A stretch of 64,000 bases of DNA. It comes from Euglena gracilis. Its lineage: Eukaryota. The DNA is taken from assembly GCA_039621445.1 (NCBI GenBank), contig CP154954.1:49765847-49829846 (forward strand), written 5' to 3'. Both the position numbers and the translations under genes were made by a program. The notes under the pieces are model-generated. The model saw only the letters and a program-made list of their open reading frames with translations. It was not told where the DNA came from and made no database searches. Below are positions 10,560 to 64,000 of this stretch, piece by piece (position 1 is the stretch's first letter; each line of letters opens with the position of its first letter).

Positions 10560-13500
10560 TCAGCAGGACACGAGGTCGAGGTCGTGGAAGATGTCGATGA
10601 GGACGCTGTCCAGTCCCAGCACCGACTGCAGGAAGTGCCGTGCCGCGGAGCACGGCGGCGCCCCCAGGCTTCCTTTTACCCGACCAAAGGGGGGTGGGGG
10701 AGGGGGGCCGGGTGCACTGTGGGGTGCCTGCCCATAGCAGGCAAACCCCCCTGGGGGGTGGGTCGGTTTGGGTCCCGGTGCCTGCTGACCCAGGCAATTT
10801 CCTGTTCTTGAAAATGGCCATTTTCGGATGTGCTACAGCCCTCACCCTCAAAACCCAACCCCCTGAAAATACCCCACCCCCCCTGCCTGCCCATAGCACC
10901 CATCCCCCGAGGTGGGGGGGAGGGGGGCGACCTTCCTTAAAAAGAAACCTGGGCACCTCGTCGGCCTCCGCCACGTCCTTCCAGGCCACCGCCTTGCCGG
11001 AGGGCTGGCCCCAGCGCTGCTCTCCCGCCAGCGGACTGGAAACAGCCACGTGGCTGAAGAGGGGAACGGTGGCTTGGTTTGAGGTGTGTTGGTGCAGTGA
11101 GGCGGCGCATGGATGGCGGCGGCACCACCACCACCACCAATGCCAACACAAAGAATACAAACAAGATGTCACTGGGGGGGGGGGGGGCTAGTGGGAACCC
11201 ACTTTTGGGGGGGTCAATTTTGGGCCCAAAAAGTTTTTAGGCGGTTCGCACCAAAATAGAAGAAAACGTCACATCTGGTGGGGTACCCACCCAGCCTGAC
11301 CCCCGGGCTCGGCTGGGACCCACCCACCCTACCGGGTCACGAAACTAAAAAAAATATCTGTCCATCCATCCATCCATTTATGAACAAAAAAAATGTGACC
11401 CAAAACCAAATCAGCCCCCATGGGGGTGCGCCTGCTGTCGGCAGGCACCCCATCCTGGCGGGGTAAAAATTGGCAAAAATGCAATGGAGGAAAATGGAAA
11501 AGAAATCCCGCCAAATATTTTTGGACTGTTTTGGCCGAGATTGCCTAATTTCCCGATGCTTTTTGGAAATATCCAAAACATTGCCCCCTGCCGTTCAAGC
11601 CCATTTCCCCTTGAAAATAGCATTTTTTTGGTTTATTGGTGTGCTGACCCCAGAGGGAGGATCAAATATTCCCAACCCCCCTGCCTGCCTGCACCCACGC
11701 CACAATGAATCAATGAAGCCCCCCTGCCAGGTTTTTACCGAGGGTTGTGCTCCTTCCTATCGCTTCCTGCGGTGCAGAGCTAACAGAGCCACGCTGTTCG
11801 CCAGCAGAGCTCTTCCTCTCCCTTCTCTTCCTCTGCCAACGTCTTCCGCATGCACTCCACAAAATTCTCAAATTCCGCTGTCAAATCCGGGGTGGCGGAA
11901 GCAGCGTCCACAAGGGAATCGGCGGTCGCTGGGGCCTCAACGGGCGGCTCAGGCAAGCACCTCCTTCCTCGGACCCACCCTGATTCCAATTGTCACAACC
12001 ATCTTAAAAAGCTGTCCATTTCTTCTGTCCATTTCCACACTTCAGAGCTTGCACAGAATCCACTACAACAGGTAGCATCCCTCAGAATTCCACATACAGG
12101 CAGGCAGGTGGTGGGTCGGACACAATGGAGGGGCACACCCTCACCAAAACAGATGTGCGACCAAAATGACTGATTTTTCAGCAGGTGCAAAGTTCTGGGC
12201 CGAAAAGCCCCCCCCCCCCATCGACCGAAAGCGTGACACCCTCCTTTTATGAAATCCTGATCCCCCTTCGAAACAGCAAAACTGTTGCAATTGAAAAAAA
12301 CCTTGCACACCTTTGGTGGTTTGGTGAAAAAATGCTGGGCCATAAATTTCAATGGCGGCCGCGGTACCTGCCTGGTTGTGGGGGTGTTTAGGAGAGCGAT
12401 GTTGTGTGCCGCTGGGGGGACGGCGATGGCCTGGCCTGCTGTCTGGGACACCACGATGGGGCCACAGCCGCCCAACGCGGTTCGCAGTTCGCTCCTAACA
12501 CACCCCGCCATGAGGAAATAGCTTGCATGGGAGTGATGACTGGCGCGGGTGTCAAGAATAGAATTTGCATTGCAGCTCTGGGCGGTCCTTAAGCAAGTCA
12601 AAAAAAAAAAAACCTCACCCATCCCAGCGCAGTCAAAATCCACAGGGAAAAAGCCCCCAAAAGGCCATCTTTTTGGCGAAAACGGGTCAACCACGGGGGG
12701 AACAGTGCTTTCTGGCTTGCATCTAGAGCGTGGCTCAAGGCAGTCTGTAAGTAGGAGTTCTTAACGGAGAAAGAAAATAAAATCCTGTCCTGTTGCACAG
12801 CCCTCTTGCACCGTCACACCAGCCCTGGGGGGAGAGCACAATAGAAAGCGCGGGCCCTGGTCGGGGTGCAGCTTGTTGCACTTGGCGCCGAACTTGCACT
12901 GGCCGGTCATGGCCCACACCTCGCAGATCTCCCGCCCGGCCTGCGCCTCCACCGCCTCCGACAGCTGCTGGTACGCCGTGAGGTCCGGGTGGACGAAGCG
13001 GCACTGGGAACACTGCGGCCGGCTGGAATTGATGTTATCCCCAGACCAAAAAGACAAGGCTTTATTTTTTAAGCCCCACCCAGCCCAGCCCGGAACCAAA
13101 CACCACTGGTCAGCCATGCTCTTGGGCCCAGCACTGCCCAGCATCGCCCAGCATCGCCTTTGAAGCCCTTGGGACTCTTCCTGTTCCTACACCCCCTGAA
13201 ACAAACCCTCCCCCAAATAATACCCCAGCCCTCAGGGTACGACTTCTGCGACCGGGTTAATACCCCCCCCCCGTTTCAGGCCAAAGGCCCGGATTTTAAC
13301 CTGAAAATGTTGGTAAAAATCACAATCTCTGACAACAAATTACGAAAAAAAATCATCTGACCTCCAAAAAATGGTAAACTTCATAAACACAAAAAATGAC
13401 CCAAAAGAGGGTCAAAAGGCGCTATTTTGGCTCCTACGGGACTCCGAAAAATTTGGGGTGTTATTCAGGCCGGGACTTCGGGCAAAAAAAATAACCCCGG

Positions 13501-16500
13501 GGGGTATTATTTGGGGGGGGGGGGGTTACCTGCTTCCACAGCAGAAACTCCACTTTTGTCATTTGCCTACAAAACAAACAAATTGATGAAAAATCCTTCA
13601 GGAGCTCACCCGGGATACACAGATTTCACCTTCTCCGCAAAAAAATTATGCAACCATATTTTAATATATTTTAATTAGATTTTGGGAAAATCATGATTCC
13701 AATCAGGGGTTTTTTTAAGACCGGGGGGGGAGGGGGGTCCCCCCACCCACCCGCCTTTGGCGCCGAAAAGTTTATCCCCCCCCCCTCCGGGGGGGACCGC
13801 TGGAGTGGGGGGGGGGGGAGGAGGGGCTCGGCAGGACCCCCCCGGGGGGGGGGTCTACGACTAAAAAAAAACCCCGATTCCACTTTGTTGGCCAAAAAGA
13901 ATCAAATATTGGGCCAAAATGAGGAAATGTGAAATATAATTTTCAACCAAAAAAAACTTCCGCTGAAAAAAATTGTAAAAAACCCACAAAACTTGCGAGC
14001 AAATGGGCGTTTGCGATCCCCCAGGGATGTATGGGAAACCTTGAGGTGCGTAGGACCCCCCTCAACCTCAAAACCGAAATGGGCCGGGAAAATTTTCGGT
14101 TTTTTTTTTGGGAAATGCAACAGGTCGGATACCAGGCCAAAATTGTTGGAAAACACCCGATTTTCCTTTGAAATAATCCAAAAATGCTCATTTTTCAAAT
14201 TTTCTTGAACACCTTTTCACGTGGAAAACACCAAAACATCAAAAAATGGGCGACATCTTCAAAAATGAGGCATAGGGTTTTATTGCTCATTTTCTGGAGC
14301 ACAATGCCAGAAGATTCGCCATTTTTGGAACCTGCTGAGGAGGGCGGGTGGGGGGGTCCGGACCCCCCTGCCAACATCCAGGGGAGGGTCCGGACAGGTT
14401 TTGTGTAGCGCTGAGCTCTTTAACTGCCCGATCGTGCCATGCAACCCACCCGGCCTGGCCCGGCCCGGCCTGGCCAGTGGCCCGGAACAGGCGCCCAGCT
14501 GGCCCTGGACGTCTGTATGGGTTGACAGAGGGTGACCAAGGCTTTATTTTAGGTCCCCAATGACTTCCTTCCATTCCCCACCATTTTGGAGATATATTGA
14601 AATTTTTCGATTTTTGACCCATACCGGCCCCAAAATGGCTCATCAGCTCATGGACGCACCGTGCTATGTGCACTCTTCCAAAAAGAAAATGGCGTTTTGG
14701 GTATGGGAAAAATGCGGTTGACATGGGGGGTGTTGTGGACCAGCCGCAGGCTTGTATGGGATGTATGTGGTAGGGATCGCTGAGCTCTTATCCCTTTATG
14801 GGAAAGAGCGAAGCTTACCCCTGACGAAACCCCCCATCCCCGCCCCCGCCCCCGCCCGGGTCGGGGCCACCTTGGGAACCGGCGGATTATCACCATGATC
14901 CCGGCCCGGTTCCCGAATTTTTTTTTCCAGTCGCGAGCGACTGGATTCCTAGTTTCCGAATCACCTGGGTTTGACCCCCAACTCCCCGCCAGGCCAGAGT
15001 TATTCACGCGCGAAGGGGTCTAAACTGGGTATGATCGGCCTGCCCCTTTTTTTTAAGGCCATTTCTGGCAAAAAAAATGTCAATTTCAAAATATCTCCAA
15101 AATGAAGCCAAATCAAAGGAAATGTCCGGAGACCTAAATTGAAGCCCCTGGAATGCCCCATCTACCGGTATTTTGATTTCCCCACAACTCCCCTCCTTGC
15201 CCGAGTTACGGCCATTTTCCCGCCAATTTGGGACATTTCGTACCCTTTTTCCACTGTCAGACTTTTCGGATAAAAAGTCGAAAAAAATGCAAAAACTCGA
15301 AAAACTTTTTTGCCCGAAACGATGTTTTTTGGCCCCCCGGACCCGGAAAAACTGTTTTTGAGCCGAAAACGATCGCTTTTCGACCCGCCAGCGCCCCGTT
15401 TTAGGCCGCCAACCCATTGACTTTGGGTCAAACCCGGGTCAAAAAAGTCGAAAAATCGAAAATTTTTTTTGCCTGAAACGATGTTTTTTTGGTGTCCCGG
15501 ACCCGAAAACCTGTTTAGGAGCCGAAAATGAGCGTTTTTTTGACCCGCCAGCCCGCCAGTGCCCCGTTTTGGGCCGCCAATCATTTTCGGGTAAAAAAAA
15601 TTGAAAAAATCGAAAAAAAATTCCCCGAAACGATGTTTTTTTTGCCTCCCAGACCCGGAAAAGGTGTTTTTTTTTGAGCCGAAAATGAGCGTTTTTTTGA
15701 CCCCCTGGCCTCCCGTTTCGGGCACAAAACCTTGCATTTCAGACCAAAGAGCTCCATGGGCTGGGCCGGTTTATATGGGGGGGGGTCAATGAAGGGGTGG
15801 GGGCACACTTATTCAGAGCTCAGCACTATTTAAAACCTGGTCCCCCCACCCCCCAAATTTCGGAAGGGGGACCTCCCACCCCCCTTTTCCTCCTCAGCGG
15901 GGGCAAAAAATAAAATCTTCCAGCACTTCGCGCCGGTTGTGTATCTTGAGGCTTAATATGAAAACCCAAAATTGGTCAAAAAATGGCCGTAACTCGTGCT
16001 AGGTGGGGGGTTCGGAGAAGAGGGAGGGGGGTGGGGGACCCCCCTCTTACCTCCAGTTTTCGGTCACCAAACTTTTCGCCGTTGAATGCAAAATTTCGGC
16101 CCTTATTTTGGGGGGTCAAAAAAACCAGTTTTTCTGAAATTTCTCAAAAATGGTGGGGAATCAAATGTCCAGAGACCTAACTTGAAGCCCTTTAAATGCC
16201 CCATCTGACCATATTTTGATCAATTGTTATATCTGACAAACAAATAACCAAACAAATAAGTGCAAACGTGAACCTCGTGTTGGAAACCCTGGGGAGAGCC
16301 CGCCCAACAATTGCGTGAAGGTCCCTCCCAGATGGATAAAGACGCAGCCAATTTCTCTTTGGTGAAACAATACAACACAGAGTCCAGAGCCTGCCGCAGG
16401 GTGCTCTCGCGTACATTTCCCCTTGAGGTAGTCCACGCCATGCCACTGCCCGGCACTGACGTTGGGAACACAAAACACCCCCTTTCAAACAGGTGGAATG

Positions 16501-16721
16501 GAAGGGATCAACAGAGCACCTCCCTTTTCTCCTCGCCTTGGGATACTGGGGGATTTAAACCCGCAGCGGACCAAACGCTGCCACCCACTCTGTGGGCACC
16601 CTTGGCCGACACCCCCCCACCGGGCGTCTTGGGCGGTGGCATGGGCCAGGCAGACGTTCAGCCCGGTGTCTGCCTTGGCCTTGCGGCCTCGCTTAGCCAT
16701 TGGACGAGTTGCAGGGGCCAT
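10560..16721 (-). CDS. Tandem CCCH zinc-finger protein, paralog D (208 aa, 7 exons, two transposon-derived introns)
   Basis: Exons 16647..16721, 16403..16433, 12863..13005, 12378..12457, 11800..11945, 10955..11006, 10560..10659 = 627 nt, open frame MAPATRPMAKRGRKAKADTGLNVCL|DYLKGKCTRE...LIDIFHDLDLVSC*. Both zinc fingers are intact after splicing. The acceptor at ~11945 has only 4 nt after CTG and is less certain. Confidence 0.8.
10665..10951. mobile_element. hAT-like MITE family 3 in the last exon of paralog D (predicted intron 10660-10954)
   Basis: Ends CAGGCTTCCTTTTA...TAAAAAGAAACCTG. TSD on the minus strand is GAGGTGCC / GGGGCGCC (6/8). Absent at this site in A, B and C. Confidence 0.85.
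13704..13876. mobile_element. Short MITE related to family 3, inside an intron of paralog D
   Basis: Ends CAGGGGTTTTTT...AAAAAACCCCG. TSD ATTCCAAT / ATTCCACT (7/8). Confidence 0.7.
16439..16643. mobile_element. Older TIR insertion in exon 1 of paralog D (predicted intron 16434-16646)
   Basis: 13-bp inverted ends CATGCCAC(C/T)GCCC. TSD on the minus strand is GCCTGGCC / GCGTGGAC (6/8; ancestral GCCTGGAC within the C-L-D codons). Absent in A, B and C. Confidence 0.8.
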
Positions 16722-18496
16722 TGTGCACAAACAAAAAGCTGGGTGTGAAAAATGGCAAAAAAAATGCACCCCCCCCCGGGTGCCTGGTCTGGCAGGCTTG
16801 AGGGCAAAACCGGGGGCCAACCACAAGGGGTACATTTGCATGTTATGAACTTCGCGGGTTCTGCACAAAATGGCCACAAAAAGCTACAAATGGGGCTAAA
16901 AGTTGCAAAATCAAGCCGAAAGCCAACGCTGGGGAGGCCAAGAATGCATCAAAGGGCGAGGGGGGGGAAACAACCAGTAAATACAAGCGTTGCTTCAATC
17001 TCCCAAAAAAAAATCTCGCTAAATCCCCAAAATCTGGGAGAATGACACAAATTACCTACCCATCGACCAGGCTACTCTTTAAAGACCCCGGGGGGTCCAC
17101 TGGCTAGCCATTTTGCTGGGCACTGGGAAAAATGGACTAGCTAGACCCCCCCCCCCCCCGGGGCTAGCAGGGCTAGCTAGGGGAAAATATTTCAACTGAC
17201 CGGCGCAAAGAGCCCCAAAAAATTTTTTTGGACGTCCAAAATTGGCCAAAAATGCCAGTTTTTGGCCATTTGGGTTTTTTTTTGAACAAAATCAGCCAAA
17301 AATGCATTTAAAATATCGTTTTTACCTCAGCCCACAGCGCTGGAGGAAAATTTTTTTCCAGTCGGGGGAACCCTGGCACACTCCCCCACCGGGGGAGGGG
17401 GTCTACTAGAATTTCCGCTGGCCAAATTTGGACCAGACCACTCCTCGATGTGTATCCAAGATACACAGGAATAGACAAATTTTCTTTTGGCGATACACAA
17501 GGGAACATAATTTTTTTTATGGTGATACACAGGGGAACACAAAATTTTTTTTGGTGATACACAAGATACACAAACATTTTTGTGGATACACAAATCCGAT
17601 TTCGGAATAGACAAAAAAAAACAAAAAATTGTGGGTTGATCTGTTGACACCATTGCCACAAAATTCTGTGGACATTGGCCCCGGCTCAACCCCAAATGTG
17701 GCAGGGAATCTCACCCTGCTACTGTGGTTGGGGGAGGGGCACCACTTCCTCGTGTGGCGTTTGCAGAGCCCTTGATACAATTGCCGCACCCATACCCTGG
17801 ATTTCCTGTTTTTTTTGTGTTTTGCTTTTTTGTTTTGTTTATTTTGTTTTTTATTATAATTTTTTATTTTGTTTTTTTGGGTTTTTTTCAAAACAGGTGC
17901 AAAAACCGACGAAATGGACAATAGGAAATCAACACGTGCTAGAGGCAGGCTCGCCAAATTGCCTCTGCATCATCCAACAAACGTCTCACGCCAGGAGGAA
18001 ATCCCATTCTGGCCATGTCTTCCAATATCAAAAATGGAAATGCTTCCTTGCTGCCGAAGCCTTCCTTTTGTAGAACTGGGAGCCACTGATTGAGAATGGG
18101 GTTGTGGCGATGTATTTCTGAAACTATGAGCAAACATAAATCACCTGATCATCAGAATTTTTCCACAGGTTTTTGCTCCGGGGGTAGTGGCACGGAAACC
18201 CTGATGGAGAACGATGCAGCAGACGTTGAAGCTTCAGAACCTTCAAGGGCGGAAGAGTTCGAAATCAAATCGCATTCATCAGAGGAACTGTCCTCCGTTT
18301 GGGACCCACTTTCTGATTCTGATGGTGAAAATCCCTCCGAGGAGGAATCCGCCTCAGCAGCACGGGACTGTCGCAGCTGCCGCTGTGCCGTCCCCCGCGG
18401 TCACAAGCATTGGCCATAACAAGTAAGCGGCGGCGCCAAGATCCTCGTCGCCACAGACGGAAATCCGCACCACCACTTCATCGGCAACACGGTTCC

Positions 18497-21400
18497 TCAA
18501 CCAAGGTTCTTTGGGTTTTGAGGTGGACTTACAAGCCCATGAAGCCCAATCATCAAACATCCAAGAAACCCTGTGCTGGACAGAGTTGAGCGTCGGGGAT
18601 GACAGACCGGCTTGACAATCGAGTTAAATGCAGGTTGTTGTGGCGCGGCATTTTCAAACGAGGACAAAATTTCTTCCAAATAAAAGTCGGTGCACAAAAA
18701 GCTGCTTGTTTTGCCGACAGACAAGGCGTAGGCGGAAAGGTTAGAGAGATGGTGGGTTAGAGGCGAACAAACAAACAGGAAGGCATGCATTCTGCAGCCT
18801 GTTGCAGCACATCTTGGAACAATATATCAAATGAGTGGGAACAAATTTACATCAGCCTGGTAGAGTTGCTCGCAATGTGTTTGGCTCAATGGAACTGTGC
18901 ATGACCTAGATGGGAGAATATGAAAATGAATGCAAATGAAAATGAAAATGAAAACGGCCACTCCATCTAAACCTGATCACAACTTGGTGGCGCAATCCAG
19001 AATCGGGGCAAAATATCATTAAAAAAAAAACGCAGAGTTAGGATACCTTGGTTGTTTGCCACTCTTTTGCCTGCAGACGACTGGCCGCGAACTCCCAGGC
19101 ATGCTTTGACGCAGTCAGCAACCGTTTTGAACAATGTTGGGAGCACCCCCCCCCCCATTGTGCTTGAGTGGAAAAAGAAAATGTAGTGAGGATTGCTGCC
19201 CAGCGCTCGTAAATCGCCATTCCTCCAACAAGCAAAACACTCTGCGATTTTTGAGAAGGCTTTCTGCCTTTTATGCTGTTTCTTTGCGAACTGAAATCGG
19301 GTCAAAAACTCTTGAAATGATTTCAAATTGTTCAACCAAGCGTGCGCTACCCATCTTTTCCAAAACACATAACGGGTTTGTTGAACCTTCTTTGAATTTC
19401 AACAATCGGTTGGAAGAAGCCGGCGCTTACCCTTGATTAACGTGAAAGCCCAAATCTCGGGCGACCCTCTGCAGCGCAGCCCATCGCTTGGTGGACATGC
19501 TGAACAGCTGTGAAATTGACAACAAAAATCAGCACTAAATGGGCTGACTGCTGGGCTTTGAGAGAAGCGAATTCAAGCGCTTCGACAAAGATCGGACCGA
19601 GAGGGCCTCCGGATCAGTCTGATCCGCCTTGGGAACACAGGTCACGTCAAAATCAACATGTTGCGTTCTTTGGGAGGCACAATACCATTGTATTACATTG
19701 GGTGCTTCTTGGCGGATATCCTTGTGCAAAGAGGACAGGAGAACTGATGCACCATCGACATAGAGAGCTACTAAATTGGCATCAAGCCAAGCACTGACGT
19801 TGACCTTTTCGAAAGCGGTGGTGATGGCCGTTTTAATGGCATTTGCATCCCTTCCCTCACCAACCATTTTTTCCACTCCGATAAAGCTTTGGAGCAGGCT
19901 TTTGCCACTGAATTTCCGGGCTGTCACAGAGGCCCATTGACCGCCGGCCTCCTTCACCTCATCCACCATAATGGCGCGCGACGAGGCCAGCGCCCACAAT
20001 TTCCGCAAATGCTCCCTAGCTGCATCCGCAAAGAATTTTGAGACCACTGGAGTGTATCGGGAGGCGTACCGCAAAATCGTACTCCACCACCCCATTGCTC
20101 TTTTGCAGCTCCAACAGTGGTCGGAGTATTGTGTTGGCAAAACCGTTCTTGGCCATGAACAAAACAGTGCAGAACATCACCTTACCTTTCGGAATCAAAG
20201 AATTCGGCAATGCGATGATCGCCTGGGGCATGGGCGCATTTGATCGATTGGATAAACCTTGTGCAGCAATATGGTATGCTCCATTCTCGTGTGATTTGAC
20301 ATTTCAGAATGAATACACTTTCGTTGGGAGAGCCAAAACATTTTTCTTTTTGCCACTGCCACTCACCTTGGGGTGTTGTCGAAAAGCATGGCACGTAGCA
20401 CACCACATTCCAATCGCTGGGTCAAAACCACTTTCGATTCGATTTCCAACTGGACTGAAACCTCTTCTCCTTTTTCTCTCTTACGTCCAGGCAATTTGAT
20501 TTTCTTGTTCGGTGGGGGGTTCAAAGAACTGGATGAATCTCCAGGGAGCGACTGGGAGCAGGCACCTATGGTCACTTCCCATTTTGGTGCTCTGGTCGGC
20601 CCTGGTCGGCCCTGGTCGGCCCTGGTCGGCCCTGGTCGGCCCTGGTCGGCAAATAGTCGGCCATAGGTGGGGGTATCGTCACAGGAAAAAAGATTGTGAA
20701 AAATGACCCAAAATTACCAAAAGGGCGTAAAATGGCCAAAATGCCATAAAATATGCTCACATTGACCCAAATTAGCCCAATATTTGCCAAACCAGTGACA
20801 AATGGCCCCCAAGTGAGCAAAAACTGATCCGTAATGGCCAAAATGGGTGTAAAACTGGATATTTGTGGGGAAATTATCCAAAAATGGGTTGAGTTATTCA
20901 AAATATACAATATACTGGCACAAAATGCTCAAAAATGGTCAAATTGGACCAAAAAGAGACCAAAAAAATGGGCAAAATAACAAAAAAAGGTCGAAAATGG
21001 CTTTAAATGGTCAAAAATGGCCCCAGAGCAGGACAAAATGGCCCAAAATTACAAGAAGTGCGCAAAAAGTGGCAAAAAATGGTCAAAATAGGTCGAAATT
21101 GGTGAATTATGGTGACAAATGGGCCAAAAGGGGACAAAAGCGACCTAAAGTGGCCAAAAGCGGCCAAAAGTAGCCAAAAGTGACAACATGAGCCAGACGA
21201 GCCAGAAAAATCTCAAAATCTGGGATAAAATTCCTCATTCTCACTGAAAAAATGACATCAATCAGAAAAAAAGTTGCACAGTCGGCTGCGGTCGGCTGCG
21301 GTCGGCTGCGGTCGGCTGCGGTCGGCAACCCACCTATGACAGTCCTGAAACCCGCGGTAACCCGCGGTCGATGCTGCCGGGCCAGCATCGTCCTGCATCG

Positions 21401-21726
21401 CCCAGCACCGCCCAGCATCATCAAAGGAGCTTGGTTCAGAGGGAAAGCTGCCTAAGTCCTTCATCCATTCCCCTTCGGTCGGCCAATCACATGCAAGTCG
21501 GCCCTGGTCGGCCCTGGTCGGCCCTGGTCGGCCCTGGTCGGAACCCCCACCTACGGGGGTCCTGAAAATCATAGTCGGCCCTGGTCGGCCCTGGTCGGCC
21601 CTGGTCGGCCCTGGTCGGCCCTGGTCGGCCATAGGTGCCTGACTGGGAGCTGCCACTGCTAGAAGAGTCCTCCGTCTCCGCTCGCTCCCAAGAGGAAATG
21701 AAAGAAGACAAGCACATTTGCTTCAT
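18497..21726 (-). pseudogene. Decayed hAT-superfamily transposase (ZNF862-like), interrupted by a family-1 MITE
   Basis: Fragments read across stops and frameshifts: MKQMCLSSFISS...; a TTF-type zinc-finger remnant (RFQSSW...MWCATC...KSHENGAYH); and a DDE core with IMVDEV, LYVDGASV and WYCASQR (the CxxH position). GATACAC subterminal repeats occur at 17450-17595 and 21765-21870. A probable left terminus CAGACC lies at 17434; the other terminus was not found. The 3' boundary is approximate. Confidence 0.75.
20559..21641. mobile_element. hAT-like MITE family 1, second copy, inserted in the 5' part of a transposase ORF
   Basis: Same TIR CAGGCACCTATGG and similar internal sequence to 43435-44327. 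Perfect 8-bp TSD ACTGGGAG (20551-20558 and 21642-21649). Confidence 0.93.
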
Positions 21727-32865: not shown

Positions 32866-34788
32866 TACGTCGGCAGGTTGCCACTAGCGAGGGTTAGCAT
32901 CTGGAGGGTCCAAACATCTTATGAGCCTCTGTGCCCACGGGATCTTGGGGTCACACCATTGCTTACTGACTTTCTGGCGAGAGGGGGATCACTCCCCAGT
33001 TTCAAAACACCACTCACCCACTTCACCCCTGGAGTGAGGCGTCGATCACTCTGGCCACTCGTGCCATCACGTGGGGTTTTCAGCCAGTACTGGCTCCAAT
33101 GGAGGGGGGATCTGAGCCAAAAACTTATCAGTCACTGTGAAAAAGCAGCCCGTCACCCCCCGGACACACATTGAGCAATGGTGTGCTTGGGACCCTCGAG
33201 ACCATCCCTTCGAGAGGATTAAAACCTTCGATGGGGCGGTTGGGTTAGAAAAGATTGCTGAAGCGTTGGCGGACACTGCCAACAAACACAACATTGGTTG
33301 GGGATTGCCCAGGTTCAGGGTGATGCAGTGCCCAATGACCACCAGCGCACAAGGAATTAAATGATTGACATGATGGTGACTGTGAAGACCAACCATACAT
33401 TTTCTATTTGGCACCTGTGCGTTTTGGCCAATTGAGAATATGATCCAAAGGCAGCTCTTTGCAACAACCAACAACTGCCACAGCCACAACTACGTACATG
33501 AGCGCCGCTGGGGAAAATGGAAAAACCTGCAAAAAGGCGGCATACATGGATGCATTTTCATACAACCTCAAAAAAAACCAGCCTCATTTTGGTCCTGACC
33601 TGCAAGCTGCGACCAGGGGGGTGGTCGTTAGACCCCCCCCTCACTTGCAACCTGCGACCGGGGGGTGGTCGTTAAAGTGGGGTGGTCGCACGACAAAGGG
33701 GGGAGCACTTACCAACAACTAATGATAACCAGTGATTGTGTCCAACCAACACCCCCCTCTGCTCTTATCCCTATGACCAATGACCACCATTTGACAAAAA
33801 GTGCAAAAGAGGGGGAAAATTGACCTTTGGGGGGGTCCCAGGAGAACCCCCCCCCTCCAGAGCAGAACCGGGAAGGCCTGGTGGGGGGAGGGTGGTCGAC
33901 CCGGGAAAGATTTTTGGGGGTCGAAAATTGTTGCTCCGGAAAGACGGGGGCTGGCCGAATGGCCGATTCCCGTTCTGCCCTGCCCCTGCCCCCCAGGTCC
34001 CCCCTGGCCTCCACCCATGTCGCAACCTCGACTTCTGTGTGGGGTCGGGGGGCTGAGCAACCCCCACCACAGCAGGCACGGGCAGCTGGTCAGCCCAACA
34101 ATATACAGCCTGGGCTGGGGGCAGTGCCCATGTCGCCTCTGCAATGCTTCCGCTGGGACGCGCCACTGTGTCACGGTGGGGCATGCGGACCCCGTGGAGC
34201 CCTGCGGCGTCTATATCTGGGCGGCACCGAAGGTCACCTCCGGGCAGCGGCTCACCCCTCCCCCAAGACGACGAAAAGGAACCGTCCTGGCTCAGGAGGA
34301 CTTGGCATCCCCGAGCCGACCACCGGTGTGGGCGGGACACAGTGCTGCGGTGGCACTGGCGTGCTGCGTTCCCACCGGGATGCAATGCAGTGGGAGGCAG
34401 CAACAGTGGACGGGTGGGGAGGGAGGGGAGGGGCGGCGGCCCCAGGTCACAACTGTGGGGGTGGCCGCAAACATGGGACGAATTTCGTCTGCCAAATTAC
34501 AGAAAATGAAAAAGAGTGCTGAGCCCCGGCAGGGCTGCAATCCAGGAGGCCGTATTCTGGAGCCCCTCTCTGACGAGAGTGGCTCAAATTCCTCAAATTT
34601 GCCATGGAGCCTGCTCGAGCAAAAGCTTCTTCTTAAAACCCCACCATCCGGGGTCCCCCCTCGACCAGGGTGGAACGGGACCCCCCGTGATTTTGGGCTG
34701 TTTGACGGCACTTGTTGAAAAATTTCCGGTGCAATGCGCCGGAAAAATTTAAGCCCCCCTCAGGGGGGTTCTTACAGTTAAAACGAAG

Positions 34789-37337
34789 CATGCCCTTAGG
34801 CGGCGCATCTCGCGCTTAAGCTTTTTTTCGTTGTCGATGTGCGCTAATGCGCACATCGACATTCTTTACGAAATTGACAAGATGTGATCCCAATAACCCA
34901 AAAATGTGAGCAGGATGTGATGGGGTGCAGGCTTTTTTTACGAACCCCGGGGAAGCCTTCGGCGCCGGGGTTGTGCCAGGGCACTTTTGGCCGTGTGCCC
35001 TACCCCCTGGGGGGGGTCGGATTTGGAGTGCCTTGGAGTGCCTGCCCAGGCAGGCACCCCCCCCCCCGGGGTGGGGTCAGCACCCGACTAAAATACGCGG
35101 GCCCCTGGACATGGAGATGGAAGCAGGGGCTTTGGCAAATAAGGTGCCTGAGGGCAAGCGTCAATACAGCACATGGTATACACAACACCCAGCAGGCGTG
35201 TTTAGAACCCTGCAATGGCTGTTTCATTAGCTCAGGACATTGACTGAACGATTTGGTGAGGTGTGCCCAGGCCTGAAGCGATACCCTGAAATTTGGCTGT
35301 GTCAGAAATTGGTGGTCGTTGTGGCAAACAAGCAGATGGACGGTGTGCGCAAATGCGCACACCAACCGTTTGTGCACTTGTGAAAAGGACCACGTCTGCC
35401 AGCTGCATTTGATGTGTTTGTAAAATTGTACAAGTGGTTGGGTTGTGCAAATGCGAAAAACAGTCTGTCTGGCGGGTTTGCTCATCTGCACAGAACACTC
35501 ACTTGTGCAACTGAACACACGTGACATTCAGAGGGTGTGGCACTACTGCAGTTTGGAAATACTTAAATGCGAGGTATTTTGTAGAATTCAAACACAACAA
35601 AAGGACCAGCTTACGGGCTCGAATTTGGGCATCGGCAATTGAAGCTGTGAAAACCTTTATCTTAGCCCCTGCAACATCAAAACAACGTTTCCAGGGTTTA
35701 TCCTGCAAAACTTACCCCGCCCCCCCCCCCCTATGCTCAACGACCGGTAACCTCTGTCCTCTGACCGGGGGGGGGGGTCGTTGGACATAGGGTAATGACC
35801 AAAAAGGGGTCCTCTGACCGGGGGGGGGGGTGGTCGTTGAACACAGGGTCGGGAAAAAGTTTGCCGAACCCCCCCCCCAAACAGGTCAAAATTTTCCTTC
35901 CGGCGCTTCGCACCCCCATTTCCAGCCCTGTCAACAAATATTTACTCAAATAGCACCCAAAACTGGCATCCTTGGACGATTTTGTTGCGGAGATCAAGAG
36001 AATATGCAAGGAAAGTGCAAACCATCTTCACTCCATCATACAACCTGGCAAACACCTGAAAGTGTCACGGTGGAATGTTGGGAGTGTGGTGAAGCTCCTT
36101 CAACAACCGCAGGCACTATCTCCCCGGTGGAGCGCTCATGAGGGAACATTTTGGACGATGGGCTGCGGGGTAGAGGACAAGCGGGGAAGAAAAGCCTTTC
36201 AGGGCTGGCAAACCTCCGGTTTTCGCACCTGCAAAAAAACATCAAACCTCCGAAAAGGTGTCCTCTGACCGGGAGGGTGGTCGTTGGACATAGGGGGGTC
36301 GTTGGACATGGGGGGGGGGTAGTTTAGAAGGGCCCTTCACATCCAGCATTTTAATCCGAAGATGAGGCACAGTACATTGGCTGAAAATGGATGCGTCTGA
36401 TGATTTGGAAATCCTGTGTACACGGGGACATGTAATGCAATACACTTCATTAGACCTTCTCAGACATACCTTACAACACCACCACCTTGAACACAACATC
36501 TATCTGCTGTCCTCCTGTCTCGATCCTTCTCTTTGTCTCATAAGTCCCTGTTGCCAAGGCTTCAAAATGAAAAAGAATTTTGGTTGGTGCCCGCAATTGT
36601 GAAACACAACAATTTTAATGGTTGATGTGCGCATTTGCGCACACCAACCACCCAAACATACCACCAGCATTCAACAGAGGGGGTCCAGCACCACAGGAAT
36701 AAAAGGGAGGCGATATCACAATGATGTCACATTCATTTTTCAGGTCAAAACACAATGCCATTGGAGCCGCTTGGTTGGTTTTAAAGTGGTTGGTGTGCGC
36801 AAATGCGCACATTGTCCATGTGCACATTTGCACACACCGACATCATTTACTGTTGTGTGGGTGCCAGAAAGCCTTAAACAGCAGTGGGGCATTGATGGGC
36901 AACTTGCGACCGAAATCAACAGGAACTGGTAGCAGTCCTGCTGTGTTCTGTATCACCCTCATCAACCCCCAGTGGCAGAATTCTCGAGCAGTCCATTGGG
37001 GACAGGAATGGGGGGGTGGCAGTACTGGGGTGTTGATGTTTTTGTCGGTGTTTTGTTCACTTTGGGGGGATAAATCCGGGGGTTTTCGTGGCATTCCGAC
37101 CTCAAAAAAACAGCAAAAAGCACGTAGCTGCCGGGAGAGCCGGTTCCCAAAAAGAGAATTTGCCTGTATTTTGTCCAATCCTGCTCCCTCTCGCTCTTAC
37201 CCCTAGTAACGCCGGTGCTCAAAATGGTTTTTGGTCGATTTGCACAAATGCACACATCGACAAAAAGCTTAAGTGCGAGAGAATTGACACATCCAAAAAA
37301 AAGCTTAAATGCGAAATGCATCGCCTAAGATGCTCGA
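34789..37337 (+). mobile_element. Degenerate hAT-like element with transposase remnants
   Basis: Imperfect inverted ends (CTTAGGCGGCGCATCTCGCGCTTAAGCTTTTT vs AAAAAGCTTAAATGCGAAATGCATCGCCTAAG) and repeated GTGCGCAAATGCGCAC palindromes. Peptide remnants KVSRWNV (TRWNS-like) and YLLSSCLDP. Boundaries are approximate. Confidence 0.5.
35715..36319. mobile_element. TA-flanked MITE, same family as 40293-40705
   Basis: C-run/G-run termini with TATG..CAACGACC / GGTCGTTGGACATG, and TA on both sides. Confidence 0.6.
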
Positions 37338-37908: not shown

Positions 37909-40900
37909 TCAGCAGGCGACCAGGTTCAGGTCCCGGAAGATGTCGATCAGCGCGCTGTCCACCCCCAGCCCCAGGGAAGAACGGGAAGGCCTGGGGCAGG
38001 GGGGGGGGGAAATGCAACTTGGCCCTTCAAATTATGCAAGTCAAAAAAATGCAAAAAAATGCAAAAAAATGCAAAAAAAATGCAAAAAAATGCAACTTGC
38101 AAAGAAAACCCTGAGAAAACCCTGAGAAAAGGCTGGAATGTAACAGAGTTGCTGCCTATAATCCATAGGCATGTGACAATGCCGGTGTATACCTGTCAAT
38201 GATTCACAAAGAAGACCTCCTGGACATATATTGCAAAAACTGGCTCCTACACTAGACAAGTGTGGGGGGGTGTGGGGGGTGTGGGGGGGGTGTGGGGGGG
38301 TGTGGGGGGGTGTGGGGGGGGGGGGGGTGTGGGGTGAATGGGGGGGCGGGGGGGGGTGGGGGAGGGGGGGGGGGCGGGCGCAGCCCCCCCCCCCCCTCCC
38401 CCCCCCCGCCGCGGTGGCCGTAGGCCACCGGACCCCTCATCGGTGGCTGTGGGCCTGGATAATGTCTATCTGGGCTCCAATTTTTCACGGAAAAAAACAT
38501 ACATTTTGATGAAAAAAATTCCAAAATTCTCAGGTTTAAGTTGTTTTCAGGAGTGGTGATAAAACTGCAAAGTCAAAAAAACTGCCCCAAATTTTGGCAC
38601 ACTCAAATTTTATTGACATTTTTTCTCTTGGCAAATTTTTGGTATTTCAACCATTTTTTTGCTTCAAAAACCTCCGACATTCAAACCTTTGAGAAAATTG
38701 TGCAATTTGGACGGTGAGGAAAAAAATGTGGTCTTGGGCGGGTTTTGGAGGGACCTCCAATTTGCCAACATAGGTCCCAAAATGGGACCAAAATACACCC
38801 GGTGCCGAACCCACACGGGTCAAGTGTGGGGGGGGGGGGTTGTGGGGGTGTGTGTGGGTGTGGGGGGTGGGGGGTGTGGGTGTGGGTGTGGGGGGTGGGG
38901 GGGGGGGGGTGTGGGGGTAAATGTCTAGTGTAGGAGCCAGTTTTTGCAATACCTCCTCCTGGAAGACAACAGCAAGCACTGAGACCCCAAAAACCCCAGG
39001 CAACTGCAGAGGGACCAGAGACAAAACATGACATTGGCGACCAACTGCAAAAAAGTTTTCCAGGACAAAATATTTTATGCAAAAAATGCAAAAAAAATGC
39101 AAAAAATGCAAAGAAAATGCAAAAAAAATGCAAACATATGGCGACCAACTACAAAAAAATTTTCCGGGTCAAAATATTTTATGCAAAAAAATGCAAAAAA
39201 ATGCAAAAAAATGCAAATTTCGGAAAAACCCGATTATGCAAAAAAAATGCAAATTATGCAAGTTGCATTTTTTCCCCCCCTGCCTGGGGGGGGGGTCGAC
39301 CCCCCCACAGCATTTTTTTTTCCACCAATTTGGGAAAACGGGGATTTTGGCTGGGAATTTTTTTGAATTTTTTTGAAAATTGGACCCAAAATACATGATT
39401 TTTTTTGATGGAAAACCACACTTTGTTACAAAAAAATCTGAAAATTTTTAGGTTTAAAATTTGGTATTTTTTAGGAGGGGGGTGAAAAAAACGAAGGTCA
39501 AAAAATCGGACCAAAATTTGGCACAATCAAATTTTACTGACAGTTTTTCTCTTGGATTTTTTTTGGATTTTCAATGGCACTGTTCGCTTCAAAAACTCTC
39601 AAAATGAAAATTTTGAAAAACGTTGATATTTTGGAAGGTGTGGAAAAATGGGGTTCTTGGGGGTTTTGGGGGGACCTCCTTCACGGGTCCCAAAATGGGT
39701 CAAAAATGCACCCGGCACCAAATAAAAATCTTTTTTGATGTCCAAATTTTTGGTGCTCCTGGAAATACGGGAAGAGGTGTTGGGGGGGGGGTCGACCGCC
39801 CCACCCACCACCCTGGCTGTTTGGCTGATTCCCGTTCTGCCCTGCCCAGCACCGACTGCAGGAACCGCCGCGCCGCGGAGTACTGAGGCGCCGCCTCATC
39901 CTCCGCCAGCTCCTTCCCGGCCACCGCCTTGCCAGAGGGCTGGCCCCAGCGGAGCCCACCGACCTGACTCCAAACCCTGAAGCAAAACACCGTGGTGGGC
40001 TGTTACCTGTAAGAATCTAGGACCCTAACACATTTCTATCATGGGCGGTGCTGTGATCCTGACAAGTTGTTAGGCACATGAAGGAATGCAACTTGTTGGC
40101 GCCCGGGGGGAGGGGGTAGGTCAGCCACTGCCGGTAACCTGCAACAGTGTTTGGACATGACTGGCAAAACTGACAGGTTGGCCGGCAGTTCCCCAGAGGG
40201 GACCGCAGGAAAACATGGTTGCTAGCAGGCTTCGTTTGACTAACCCCGGCGGGGGGTGCCTTGAGCTGTGGGATTGTGCCCTGCCCATAGTACCCCCCCC
40301 CCCATGTCCAATGACCGGTAACCTCTGTCCTCTGACCGGGGGGGGGGGGGTGGTCGTTGGACATACGGTAATGACCAAAAAGGTGTCCTCTGACCGGGGG
40401 GGGTGGTCGTTGGACATGGGGTCAAAAGAAAGTTGGTGGGTACCCGGGTCCCTACCCACCCAAAAATGCCCAAATTTTCCCTTCCGGCGCTTTGCGCCGA
40501 AAATTTTGGGCAATTTTGACAAATTTTTGTCCAAAAAGTGTCAAAAATGGCATTTTGGCCAAATTTTTGGCCAATTTTTGGGCAAAATTTTTCGTCCCGG
40601 CGCTTCGTGCCGGGACGAAAAATTTGGTCAACCTCCGAAAAGGTGTCCTCTGACCGGGGGGGTGGTCATTGGACATAGGGGGGTCGTTGGACATAGGGGG
40701 GGGGGTAAGCACACTCCCCTGGGGCTGGGGGGTCGGTTTGGAACCCCGGTGCCTGCCGACCAAGCCAGTTTTCCCTTGAAAATGGGTGTTTTCCGCCCCC
40801 GGCCCCTTCGGTGCTGGGGTGTGTGCAGGAGCACTACCCACCTCAAAGCCGACCCCCCCCCCGGGGGCAGGGTTACGGTAGGAGGATGTTCCGTAGGAGA

Positions 40901-43900
40901 ATGCTCTAGAGCATCCTGTAGGGTCCGCTCGAGGTCGCTCGAGGATGCTCTAGAGCATCCTCGAGGTCGCTCGAGGATGCTCTAGAGCATCCTCGAGTGT
41001 CGCTCGAGGTCGCTCGAGGATGCTCGAAAACATCCTCGAGTGTCGCTCGAGGTCACTCGAGGATGCTCGAAAACATCCTCGAGTGTCGCTCGAGGTCGCT
41101 CGAGGATGCTCTAGAGCATCCTCCTGCGTACACACATGCACGTATAATGAGACTCAGAACAGATTTCGAACAGGGCACTTTGTTGGATTGGCATTGGCAG
41201 TGGGGGACCATGAATTGAGCAACCCTTGCAGGCACCACACAGCAGGCACCCCTCGAGCTGTAACTCAACTGTTCGAGGGCCCCAAAATAACAAAATCCCT
41301 TGTGTTTCCAAGTCGTTTCGGGGGCAAATCCCTTGTGTTTCCAAGTCGTTTCGGGGAGCAAATCCCTTCTGTTGCTCAACTGTTCGAGGGCCCCAAAATA
41401 ACAAAATCCCTTGTGTTTCCCAGTCGTTTCGGAGCAAATCCCTTCTGTTGCTCAACTGTTCGAGGGCCCCAAAATAACAAAATCCCTTGTGTTTTCAGTC
41501 GATTCGGGGTGCAAATCCCTTCTGTTGCTCAACTGTTCGAGGGCCCCAAAATAACAAAATCCCTTGTGTTTCCCAGTTGTTTCGGGGGGCAAATCCCTTG
41601 TGTTTCCAAGTCGTTTCGGGGAGCAAATCCCTTCTGTTGCTCAACTGTTCGAGGGCCCCAAAATAACAAAATCCCTTTGTGTTTCCCAGTCGTTTCGGGG
41701 GGCAAATCCCTTGTGTTTCCAAGTCGTTTCGGGGAGCAAATCACTTCTGTTGCTCAACTGTTCGAGGGCCCCAAAATAACAAAATCCCTTGTGTTTCCAG
41801 TCGATTCGGGGGGCAAATCCCTTCTGTTGCTCAACTGTTCGAGGGCCCCAAAATAACAAAATCCCTTGTGTTTCCCAGTCGTTTCGGGGGCAAATCCCTT
41901 GTGTTTCCAAGTCGTTTCGGGGAGCAAATCCCTTCTGTTGCTCAACTGTTCGAGGGCCACAAAATAACAAAATCCCTTGTGCTTCCAAGTTGTGTCGGGG
42001 GGCAAATCCCTTCTGTTGCTCAACTGTTCGAGGGCCCCAAAATAACAAATCCATCGTGTTTCCAAGTTGTTTTGGGGGACATACATGCATGCATATACGT
42101 AGGAGGATGCTCGAGATGTCGTTCGAGGTCGCTCGAGGTCGCTCGAGGATGCTCGAAAACATCCTCGAGCTCGCTCGAGGAGCTCTAGAGCATCCTCAAG
42201 TGTCGCTCGAGGTCGCTCGAGGATGCTCTAGAGCATCCTCGAGTGTCGCTCGAGGTCGCTCGAGGATGCTCTAGAGCATCCTCCAGCGACGCTCGAGGTC
42301 GTTCGAGGATGCTCGAAAACATCCTCGAGTGTCGCTCGAGGTCGCTCGAGGTCACTCGAGGATGCTTTTTAAGCCCCCCCCCTGGAGGGGGGGGCTTAAA
42401 AACGCTCGAGGATGCTCGAGATCGAGCGCTCGATCTCGAGCATCCTCCTACGGTAACCTCCCCCCCCCCCCGGGGTTGAAAATGCCTTCCCCCCCCCACA
42501 CACTCCTGGTTGATAGACCGGAGGGAAAATACTGCATCAATTTCTGCGCAATGAAATTGGAAAAGAAACACCATGACATCATTCGCTGTCACAGGGCGCC
42601 GCTGCCTGCCAGCAGAACTCTTCCTCATCCTTCTCCTCCTCCGCCAGCGTCTTGCGCATGCACTCCGCGAAGTTCTCAAACTCCGCCGTCAGGTCCGAGG
42701 GTCCAGCCACAGCCTCCGCAGGGGAGGCATCGGCCGCTGGGGTCTCGTCGCGCGCTGTGAGAGGCTGCACACAGGTGCCCACCAGGCAACAGTGGTCGTT
42801 CCAGTGCAGGACTGCAAACCAAACTTCCAAACAGGCTCCAAACGCATTTGACTCTGCGGCCCACCCTGCCCACCCTGCATACGCCATCGGAGAATCAGTC
42901 GCCCAGGATTGGCGCAAACGAGGAGATGCACTTCTCTCATCAAAACAGAAGCAACCATTTTGATGAGCAAATGCCGGGTGATCAAGCATAACCCATTGGA
43001 AATCCTGTGGAATCATGGTGGAAACACACAGGAAACAAGACAATCTCTGGGGGAGGACAGTTCCCCGGGGGGGATACACATCCATATAATTTAATGCTTC
43101 CATTCATCGAGCAGATTGAGCGCCCGCCTAGCCGCAGCAGTGTTGAGGAGGGCGACGTTGTGCGCCGCGGGGGGGATGGCGATGACCTGGCCCGCTGGGT
43201 GGGACACCACGATGGGGCCACGGCGGCCCTGGGGTCGCCTCCGACACATCATGACAATGGGAAATGGTATGCATGGGACTGATAACCGGACACAACAAGA
43301 AGAGGCATTTACATTGGAGCACCACCACCACAGCCATCACAGCCCAGGAAGCAAGAACAATGCAATGAGGGGTGGCCATGGGCGGGGTGCAGCTTGTTGC
43401 ACTTGGCGCCGAACTTGCATTGGCCGGTCATGGCCAGGCACCTATGGTCACTTCCCATTTTGGTGCTCTGGTCGGCCCTGGTCGGCCCTGGTCGGCCCTG
43501 GTCAGCCCTGGTCAGCCCTGGTCGGCCCTGGTCGGCAAATAGTCGGCCATAGGTGGGGGTATCCGTCACAGAAAAAAAGATTGTGAAAAATGACCCAAAA
43601 TTACCAAAATGGCAAATTTGCCAAATCAGTGACTGCGGTGGGCTGAAAATGGTTAAAAATGGCCAAAAGTGGGCAAAGGCCAAAGAAAAGCTGTTTTGGC
43701 CACTACTTTTGCAAATCCAGAAGTTGCACCTGGCGCAAAATGCTCAAAAATGGTCAAATTGGACCAAAAAGAGACCAAAAAAATGGGGAGAATAACAAAA
43801 AAAGGTCGAAAATGGCTTTAAATGGTCAAAAATGGCCCAAGAGCAGGACAAAATGGCCCAAAATTACAAGAAGTGCGCAAAAAATGGCCAAAAATGGTCA

Positions 43901-44813
43901 AAATAGGTCAAAATTGGTGAATTATGGTGACAAATGGGCCAAAAGGGGACAAAAGCGACCTAAAATGGCCAAAAGCGACCAAAAGCAGCCAAAAGTGACA
44001 GCCAGATGAGCCAGAAAAATCTCAAAATCTGGGATAAAAAATGAGCCTAATTCCTCATTCTCACTGAAAAATTGACATCAATTAGAAAAAAGTTGCGCGG
44101 TCGGCTGCGGTCGGCTGCGGTCAGCTGCGGTCGGCTGCGGTAACCCGCGGTCGATGCTGCCGGGCCAGCATCGCCCTGCATCGCCCAGCATCGCCCAGCA
44201 TCATCAGAGGTGCTTGGTCCAGAGGGAAAGCTGCTGAATTCCTTCATCCATTCCCCTTCCGTCGGCCAACCACATGCAAGTCGGCCCTGGTCGGCCCTGG
44301 TCGGCCCTGGTCGGCCATAGGTGCCTGGTCATGGCCCACACCTCGCAGATCTCCCGCCCGGCCTGCGCCTCCACCGCCTCCGACAGCTGTTGGTACGCTG
44401 TGAGGTCCGGGTGGACGAAGCGGCACTGGGAACACTGCGGCCGGCGTATCAAACGTTCCAGCCCTCCCCGCAAGAGGATGAAGCACCAATGTAATACCAA
44501 TACTCCAGGTCATTGCGTGCACACGCAGCACAGCAGGAACAGTGGCATTCAAATTCATTTCACATTTATGCCACAAGGCTTTAAGATCTGAATGGAGCAG
44601 AGGCACAAGGTATTTCTGAATGACCAGTTCTTCAGACTAATGCACTGCGGGAATTTCATACTTTGCCCACAACACCTCGCGGACGCCGGGCGCAGGGCGC
44701 TCCCTGGTGCACTTGCCCTTCAGGAAGTCGAGGCAGACACTGAGGCCGGCCTCTGCCTTGGGCTTGCGGCCCCTCCGGTGCACGGTGGTCGAGGCGTTGG
44801 TTGTGGGGGCCAT
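37909..44813 (-). CDS. Tandem CCCH zinc-finger protein, paralog C (214 aa, 7 exons, two transposon-derived introns)
   Basis: Exons 44699..44813, 44331..44427, 43384..43429, 43134..43213, 42608..42762, 39848..39941, 37909..37966 = 645 nt, open frame MAPTTNASTTVHRRGRK...LIDIFRDLNLVAC*. Exons 97+46 nt sum to the 143-nt exon 2 of the other paralogs. The acceptor at ~42762 is uncertain by a few nt. Confidence 0.82.
37997..39282. mobile_element. Nested CAG...CTG TIR element inside the family-2 MITE
   Basis: Ends CAGGGGGG..AAATGCAACTTG / CAAGTTGCATTT..CCCCCCCTG, flanked by CCTGGGG(G) repeats. ATGCAAAAAA subterminal repeats. Confidence 0.75.
38229..38951. mobile_element. Third-level nested inverted-repeat element
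   Basis: Perfect 30-bp inverted repeat TATTGCAAAAACTGGCTCCTACACTAGACA (38229-38258 / 38922-38951). A CCTCCTGGA 9-mer lies near both ends (38216-38224, 38955-38963). Confidence 0.65.
40293..40705. mobile_element. TA-flanked MITE (Tc1/mariner-pogo-like)
   Basis: TA|CCCCCCCCCCATGTCCAATGACC ... GGTCGTTGGACATAGGGGGGGGGG|TA. The same family occurs at 35715-36319 and at the window start (1-102). Confidence 0.75.
40868..42459. mobile_element. Foldback-like TIR element with CTCGAG/TCTAGA-rich arms
   Basis: Ends CAGGGTTACGGTAGGAGGATG / CATCCTCCTACGGTAACC. The arms (40900-41125, 42100-42445) are built of palindromic GCTCGAGGATGCTCTAGAGCATCCTCGAG units. A related end lies at 21900-22000. Confidence 0.65.
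41263..42075. repeat. Minisatellite, 9 units of ~76 or ~112 bp
   Basis: Nine occurrences of CAACTGTTCGAGGGCC, each followed by one or two copies of an AAATCCCTTGTGTTTCCAAGTCGTTTCGGGG subunit. Confidence 0.9.
43435..44327. mobile_element. hAT-like MITE family 1 inserted in exon 2 of paralog C (forms predicted intron 43430-44330)
   Basis: Perfect 13-bp TIR CAGGCACCTATGG...CCATAGGTGCCTG, perfect 8-bp TSD GTCATGGC (43427-43434 and 44328-44335), and (GGTCGGCCCT)n subterminal repeats. The site is empty in paralogs A, B and D. Confidence 0.93.
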
Positions 44814-56502: not shown

Positions 56503-56902
<400 letters not shown>

Positions 56903-63935: not shown

Positions 63936-64000
63936 AACCCCCCCCCAATAATAAACCCCCCGGTTTTTTTTTGGACACCTGAAGTTGGGGTCCAGGGGGG

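Follow-up and report, generated by a model that had tools for sequence, protein, structure and literature searches.

Introduction

The nonconventional introns of Euglena gracilis obey a splicing code, N3-CDG...CH'G-N5-6/R (here and below a slash within a motif marks a splice junction), that was worked out with knock-ins into a gene of E. gracilis (Nomura et al. 2025; PMC12501133). According to the main text of that paper, exactly 3 nucleotides (nt) precede the CAG, 5 nt follow the CTG (6 are tolerated, 4 work poorly) and the first base of the next exon must be a purine. The same text reports that both natural and synthetic introns carrying the code were spliced in a foreign exon in E. gracilis, and that 71.8% of all introns of E. 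agilis are nonconventional. The sufficiency of the code for E. gracilis splicing is taken here from this literature (PMC12501133). Nonconventional introns are released as circular RNA (reviewed in PMC11282704). Here we describe a 64,000-nt stretch of the E. gracilis genome (GenBank assembly GCA_039621445.1, contig CP154954.1, positions 49,765,847 to 49,829,846 of the forward strand; called the window, whose own numbering is used throughout) that holds four paralogs, A to D, of a CCCH zinc-finger gene. Transposon families with 8-base-pair (bp) target-site duplications (TSDs) lie in coding exons of C and D and are probably excised, each together with one copy of its duplication, by nonconventional splicing, which would return the messenger RNA (mRNA) to its pre-insertion sequence.

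An origin of nonconventional introns from transposable elements of the miniature inverted-repeat type (MITEs) was proposed in 2014 by Milanowski et al. (PMC3935182), who state that no euglenid transposable element had been identified by then. A 2024 review regards the CAG at +4 to +6 and the CTG at -8 to -6 as terminal inverted repeats (TIRs) and describes TSD-like repeats at the junctions as frequent (PMC11282704). The initial annotation of the window, made from the sequence alone, had correctly treated a transposon origin as an earlier hypothesis (PMC3935182, PMC11282704). A young intron of E. agilis with an 8-nt repeat was interpreted in 2016 as a product of break repair, according to the available text of PMC4770533, and a 2025 paper on diplonemids considers a MITE origin plausible only (PMC12621601). 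Even in 2025, the main text of the code paper calls the origin unclear and mentions MITE-like elements as a possibility only (PMC12501133), hence the interest of the window.

The elements described below resemble the introns on which the MITE hypothesis was built (PMC3935182, PMC11282704 and the available text of PMC4770533): inverted-repeat ends, TSD-like repeats, lineage-specific gains and, in one published case, an 8-nt repeat. Unlike the present analysis, these texts contain no statement that the 3-nt and 5-nt spacers add up to a duplication and show no copies of the same family outside introns. A full-text literature search, with subscription journals and supplements outside its scope, returned no paper equating 3 + 5 with an 8-bp duplication, none naming hAT for euglenid nonconventional introns and none showing intron elements together with free copies of the same family. 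Fig. 1B of PMC12501133 and its supplementary datasets may hold a distribution of sliding distances that bears on the 8-nt claim; in the main text of that paper 'TSD' and 'hAT' never occur, and 'target site' occurs once in an unrelated sense. The introners of Micromonas, dinoflagellates and others are likewise multi-copy transposons with TIRs and TSDs that become introns, the duplication supplying part of the splice geometry (PMC11282704). In contrast to the elements of the window, introners are spliceosomal, use GT/GC-AG or relaxed sites and have TSDs of 3-5 nt, whereas here the ends fit a code that is not GT-AG and is reckoned from a CAG:CTG stem, and the duplication measures 8 nt. The finding sharpens a hypothesis already in print and is its first concrete case; it does not reveal a system of a new kind.

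Four insertions private to single paralogs

The window has about 50% G+C and is rich in repeats. Self-BLAST of the window revealed the CCCH zinc-finger gene, whose product of about 210 amino acids has two CCCH fingers, in four paralogs that all lie on the minus strand:

10560-16721, minus strand: paralog D, small CCCH zinc-finger gene (self-BLAST; match to the protein P0004)
37909-44813, minus strand: paralog C, CCCH zinc-finger gene (pairwise BLAST)
48328-52753, minus strand: paralog A, CCCH zinc-finger gene, all four insertion sites empty
59811-62899, minus strand: paralog B, CCCH zinc-finger gene, all four insertion sites empty

In pairwise BLAST the exon alignments show exactly four interruptions, every one confined to a single paralog, and C and D carry two private exon insertions each. 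At every one of these sites the other three paralogs are uninterrupted and keep a single copy of the 8-mer, in agreement with the initial annotation. The four insertions are as follows, with ends, TIRs, 8-mers and spacers read in transcript sense:

43430-44330, minus strand: element 1, exon 2 of C only, 901 nt; TIR element 43435-44327; TIR CAGGCACCTATGG, 13/13
37967-39847, minus strand: element 2, last exon of C only, 1881 nt; TIR element 37972-39844, 1873 bp; TIR 15/16
10660-10954, minus strand: element 3, last exon of D only, predicted nonconventional intron, 295 nt; TIR 12/14
16434-16646, minus strand: element 4, exon 1 of D only, 213 nt; ends CATGCCAC...GTGGCATG; TIR 12/13

Element 1 splits the second CCCH finger of C between WAM and TGQC and is flanked by the 8-mers GCCATGAC/GCCATGAC (GCCAT+GAC / GCCAT+GAC), identical at 8/8 positions. 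Element 2, which contains internal duplications, lies between GTGCTGGG/GGGCTGGG (7/8). Element 3 consists of N5 (10660-10664), the TIR element (10665-10951) and N3 (10952-10954), and its flanking 8-mers GAGGTGCC/GGGGCGCC agree at 6/8 positions; its predicted junction reads GAGGT/GCC CAGG...CCTG GGGGC/GCCG. Element 4 has the same layout, with N5 at 16434-16438, the TIR element at 16439-16643 and N3 at 16644-16646, begins with CAT (CATG) rather than CAG, and is flanked by GCCTGGCC/GCGTGGAC (6/8). The 8-bp direct repeats that had been reported are therefore present at all four insertions, but only one of the four is perfect. Where the mismatches between duplicate 8-mers can be polarised by the other paralogs, the derived base lies in the predicted intronic half in 3 of 3 cases, for which the chance expectation is 1/8.

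When N3, element and N5 are taken out together, the reading frame and the codons of the uninterrupted paralogs are restored, as had been claimed for a removal of the element plus 8 nt (3 before and 5 after). The description of the four elements as different families also stands, with no similarity among them past the CAGG start.

Mobility and the 8-bp duplication

The whole window was scanned for CAG...CTG pairs with a separation of 40-4000 bp and complementarity at 10 or more of the 12 terminal bases, and perfect direct repeats abutting the TIR ends were counted separately for each length (L). Among 158 such pairs, perfect flanking repeats were found six times at L = 8 and 0 times at L = 6, 7, 9, 10, 11 and 12. 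Forty Markov-1 simulated windows, with a mean of 99 pairs, yielded a total of 0 perfect 8-mers, and the insertion pattern is far beyond chance. The six perfect pairs at L = 8 represent four families, with both copies of family 1 included, and elements 2 and 3 are added to the list once up to 2 mismatches are permitted. The copies outside the exons of C and D are:

20559-21641: second full copy of family 1, 1083 bp, perfect 8-bp TSD ACTGGGAG
29018-29510: copy of family 2, 493 bp, perfect TSD GGGTTCCC
27692-27977: copy with a family-3-type TIR (CAGGCTTCTTTTTA), 286 bp, perfect TSD CTTCCGAC
63089-63373: copy with a family-3-type TIR, 285 bp, perfect TSD ACACCCAT
50858-51494: fifth family (TIR CAGGCATTTGC), 637 bp, perfect TSD AGGCAGAA

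Both copies of family 1 have the same first C and last G and are flanked by different perfect 8-mers. Element 2 and the copy at 29018-29510 have in common the TIR, the 3' end and 258 internal bases (80%), and the copies at 63089-63373 and 27692-27977 are 86% identical and both carry the TIR of element 3. Since families 1-3 recur with different perfect 8-bp duplications, they are mobile, and the insertions are real transposable elements that make 8-bp TSDs.

The fifth-family element lies inside intron 2 of A; B lacks it and has one diverged 8-mer at about 61678-61685. It is an insertion nested in an older nonconventional intron.

A 10-bp duplication, which both copies of family 1 would permit (G-N8-C), was rejected because elements 2-4 fail it. 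A candidate element with a perfect 8-mer at 35357-36798 proved to be two copies of a near-palindromic motif (GGTGTGCGCAAATGCGCACA, 1.4 kilobases (kb) apart within 35342-36813) that together give the appearance of a TIR element with its 8-bp duplication. When any terminal sequence was allowed, the scan gave 7422 pairs, mostly tandem and poly-G/C repeats, and the CAT, CGG and other matches at L = 8 fall in tandem or poly-G/C arrays. Long tandem arrays occupy 40892-42366 in an intron of C, including a unit of about 112 bp over 41258-42081 that is bordered by inverted arrays whose unit is of the CATCCTCGAGG type, a source of false TIR and duplication matches. In addition, (ATGC/ATGT)n and CA-rich arrays recur in both orientations (2843-3010, 53537-53895 and 63837-63936; 32659-32870 and 56473-56905), the units of the CA-rich arrays reading THTH... 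in one frame. For a target-site preference of the form nTnnnnAn, about 6-7 of 16 half-sites match, which is indistinguishable from base composition.

Fit to the nonconventional intron code

Judged by their sequences, elements 1-3 fit the published code in every respect. N3-CDG is found at +4 to +6 in 3/4 insertions (GAC CAG, GGG CAG and GCC CAG), and element 4, with GCC CAT, fails. CH'G with its spacer is likewise found in 3/4 (CTG GCCAT, CTG GGGCT and CTG GGGGC), element 4 having ATG GCGTG. The downstream exon begins with a purine (G) in 4/4, and the ends can pair, with duplex-energy z-scores of -5.6, -3.5, -4.8 and -2.3 for elements 1-4 (300 shuffles each). The code given in the initial annotation (paired CAG/CTG ends, purine next) agrees with the experimental definition in the main text of PMC12501133. 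Its equation of the CAG...CTG splice motif with TIR ends holds for elements 1-3, but not for element 4 with its CAT...ATG ends. Its arithmetic of 3 + 5 = 8 is right and rests on two numbers that were established independently: given an acceptor spacer of 5 nt, a 3-nt donor spacer and an 8-bp TSD, splicing would remove the element and exactly one duplication. The junctions predicted in this way are GCCAT/GACC for element 1, GTGCT/GGGG for element 2, GAGGT/GCCG for element 3 and GCCTG/GACT for element 4; between them, the imperfect repeats of elements 3 and 4 confine the cut to 5 or 6 nt of the left 8-mer.

Compared with the introns described in the main text of PMC12501133, elements 1-3 have the same N3-CAG...CTG-N5 arrangement followed by G and the same paired ends, and two older introns of the gene have the same spacing. 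The predicted introns of the window differ in being identifiable members of repeat families with 8-bp duplications, and in that element 4 is off the code. The two older introns with 3/5 spacing lie after exon 2 and before the last exon; in A and B the form is C/GACCAG...CTGGCCCC/A. The claim that the old introns share this spacing stands for these two, but not for D introns 3a (3/4) and 1 (3/7), if the junctions of P0004, a transcript-derived protein described below, apply to them.

Several features of the other intervening sequences were also recorded. Intron 1 of D (13006-16402) measures 3.4 kb against 0.2-0.6 kb in the other paralogs and is crowded with copies of repeats. The two ends pair (CTGCGGC/GCCGCAG), and the 7-nt acceptor spacer is outside the published code. 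An extra intervening sequence separates exons 3 and 4 in C and D (11946-12377 and the region 43117-42749), where the exon is continuous in A and B. In D this sequence has TIR-like ends, CAGGCAGGTACC / CAGGCAAGCACC (10/12), and P0004 needs 3/4 spacing (sum 7); in C its 5' motif is TAG. For intron 3a of C, dozens of in-frame splice pairs conform to the code and cannot be discriminated. The family 1 copy at 20559-21641 would also fit N3-CAG...CTG-N5/A, on the minus strand.

Coding capacity and transcript-derived proteins

Once six intervening sequences are removed, the predicted coding sequence of D is intact at 627 nt (208 amino acids), and the exons of C remain in frame after the predicted removals. 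Pairwise ratios of nonsynonymous to synonymous substitution (dN/dS) between the paralogs are 0.14-0.52. The last exon of paralog A contains at 48430-48450 a 5-nt insertion that B, C and D lack, a duplication of GAGGA type within a stretch rich in GAG, which shifts the frame; A is either a young pseudogene or affected by an assembly error at this exon.

With translated exon 2 as query, 11 proteins were retained from 14 candidates, with EukProt as the single source; 7 are named EG_transcript and 4 bear GGOE transcriptome names. All 11 have CCCH zinc-finger Pfam families, and the best five are 96-100% identical to the query. One of them, P0004 (EG_transcript_23849), matches D at 170/173 residues over amino acids 38-210, that is, from exon 2 onward. 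Across the site of element 3 it reads ...ADEV/PPCSAARHF..., which corresponds to the predicted junction GAGGT/GCCG and not to the alternative GAGGCGCC; alanine would be expected here from cuts that lie 2-4 nt inside the left 8-mer. P0004 may be a chimeric assembly, or the product of another copy without element 3. With its A-like first exon and the 3/173 differences, its source gene may lack element 3. Taken with the fit to the code, these comparisons suggest that elements 1-3 are quite probably spliced; for element 4 the prediction is evenly poised.

Discussion

In our reading, coding exons of C and D were invaded by cut-and-paste DNA transposons, all non-autonomous, from four or more unrelated families. 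The inverted repeats start CAG(G) and finish (C)CTG, except in one family, which has CATG at both ends, and every insertion duplicated 8 bp of its target. In the pre-mRNA the inverted repeats would pair, so that CAG faces CTG at the base of the stem, and nonconventional splicing would place one cut 3 nt upstream of CAG and the other, before a purine, 5 nt downstream of CTG. Since 3 + 5 nt would make up one 8-bp duplication, the spliced mRNA would equal the pre-insertion sequence. We infer a shared history, not a chance match, behind the 3/5 geometry and the 8-bp duplication. A more general proposal is that nonconventional splicing would be the RNA-level reversal of insertion for transposons with CAG...CTG ends and 8-bp TSDs, that the offsets 3 and 5 would exist because their sum is the duplication, and that such elements would be the ancestors of most nonconventional introns, which number in the hundreds of thousands. 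On this proposal, an element of this kind that lands in an exon with a purine at position 6 of the duplication would be born as a scarless intron, and the excised RNA circle would comprise the element and one complete copy of the target site. We offer this generalisation tentatively, as a possibility that falls somewhat short of probable.

A number of observations weigh against excision of all four elements by splicing. The CAT...ATG ends of element 4 pair with each other, but are not covered by the tested CDG/CH'G motif, and no further copy of this element occurs in the window. The 3/5 spacing is not universal in the gene, as seen in D introns 3a and 1 under the assumed P0004 junctions. P0004 itself differs from D at 3/173 residues and has an A-like first exon, and neither paralog C nor exon 1 of D is represented among the 11 transcript-derived proteins from the exon-2 search. 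Finally, the frame-breaking 5-nt insertion in paralog A indicates that members of this gene family decay.

The alternative that survives best accepts that these are real transposon-derived introns and assigns the elements to a superfamily other than hAT, such as Merlin, P or another that duplicates 8 bp. Elements of the hAT superfamily make 8-bp duplications and have CAG ends, with the terminal pattern YARNG; other superfamilies also make 8-bp duplications. Among the families of the window, CAGGG is the terminal sequence of family 2 only; families 1, 3 and 5 begin with CAGGC or CAGGT and element 4 with CATGC. The elements resemble hAT non-autonomous elements in their 8-bp TSDs, short TIRs with CAG, lengths of 0.2-1.9 kb and the following hAT-like relic nearby:

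17963-20519, minus strand: decayed remnant of a hAT-like transposase gene, broken by frameshifts and in-frame stops, recognised by homology to P0012-P0014

The relic is 40-46% identical to P0012-P0014. Of ten long remote homologs scanned, from 150 listed, four have Dimer_Tnp_hAT above the Pfam cut-off, and the C17orf113 zinc finger occurs in 7/10 of the long homologs scanned; a language-model atlas points, as a lead only, to ZBED-type RNase-H-like families. The family 1 copy at 20559-21641 sits in the N-terminal coding part of this relic.

Against a hAT assignment, only family 2 begins with CAGGG as YARNG would have it, Pfam found nothing relevant in six open reading frames (ORFs) of the window at 18152-20713 and nothing in P0012, P0013 and P0014 (likewise P0022), and the likeness is limited in that Pfam hAT domains are confined to remote homologs of the relic. 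A search for TIRs around the relic gave 297 pairs, none with a convincing duplication. When the window ORFs were compared with PDB by phmmer as a check for hAT, 0 matches were returned, and a search of metagenome contigs for relatives of P0013 gave 75 pattern matches, none of them confirmed. No transposase in the window shares the ends of the insertion families, and no autonomous partner with matching ends was found there. The sequence evidence shows that the genome has at some time contained hAT-type transposases, but no link from any of them to these ends was found.

Merlin is one candidate for a non-hAT source in this species, two families with 8-bp TSDs having been described from E. gracilis in the available text of PMC8101967, and the lack of a window transposase with these ends, the CATG start of element 4 and an nTnnnnAn tendency that is weak at most would all be compatible with it or with another superfamily. 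According to the same text, however, Merlin TIRs end in 5'-GG (PMC8101967), whereas all CAG families here begin with CAGG and element 4 begins with CATG. Copies at different sites have both the C and the A in common, so these two bases are part of the element, and the terminal 5'-GG of Merlin is not found. The hAT-like relic in the same window also argues against a non-hAT source. On balance we consider a non-hAT superfamily rather doubtful, though well worth weighing, and the chance that the elements are hAT-type appears even or slightly better. The hAT label of the initial annotation has in its favour the 8-bp TSDs, the CAG ends and the nearby relic, but the ends of the relic are unmatched and no transposase goes with the ends of the insertions.

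A second alternative is that the insertions killed C and D, or hit paralogs that were already dead, that they are not removed from a functional mRNA and that the fit to the code is incidental. It would account for the absence of C and of D exon 1 from the transcript-derived matches, for an element 4 outside the code as tested in the main text of PMC12501133, for intron 3a of D, which causes a frameshift under a strict 3/5 cut, and for the frameshift in A; moreover, element 1 (TIR 13/13, TSD 8/8) is too young for visible decay. Nevertheless, the frames are intact after the predicted removals in both D (208 amino acids) and C, the dN/dS values lie between 0.14 and 0.52, and all three polarisable TSD changes fall in intronic halves. 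Elements 1-3 also fit a code that, by the main text of PMC12501133, is sufficient when knocked into a foreign exon, and the predicted junction is present in a D-like transcript. We therefore regard dead paralogs as an unlikely explanation of the four insertions.

The remaining alternative, that repair of double-strand breaks during intron gain left the 8-nt repeats as scars, was how the available text of PMC4770533 interpreted the 8-nt direct repeat at the recently gained gapC intron of E. agilis, but it is already disfavoured and very improbable here, because members of one family are found at sites unrelated to each other, every copy having a perfect 8-bp repeat of its own next to conserved TIR ends, with no signal at neighbouring lengths and with no shared flanks that would mark the copies as segmental duplications.

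Conclusions

Our preferred explanation, transposon insertion followed by excision through nonconventional splicing, rests on a comparison of filled and empty sites in which multi-copy transposon families lie exactly where nonconventional introns would be. It offers a simple numerical reason for the code spacers of 3 and 5 nt and makes a decade-old hypothesis on the origin of these introns specifically testable. If true, it would account for a genome's tolerance of a massive transposon invasion of its coding sequence.

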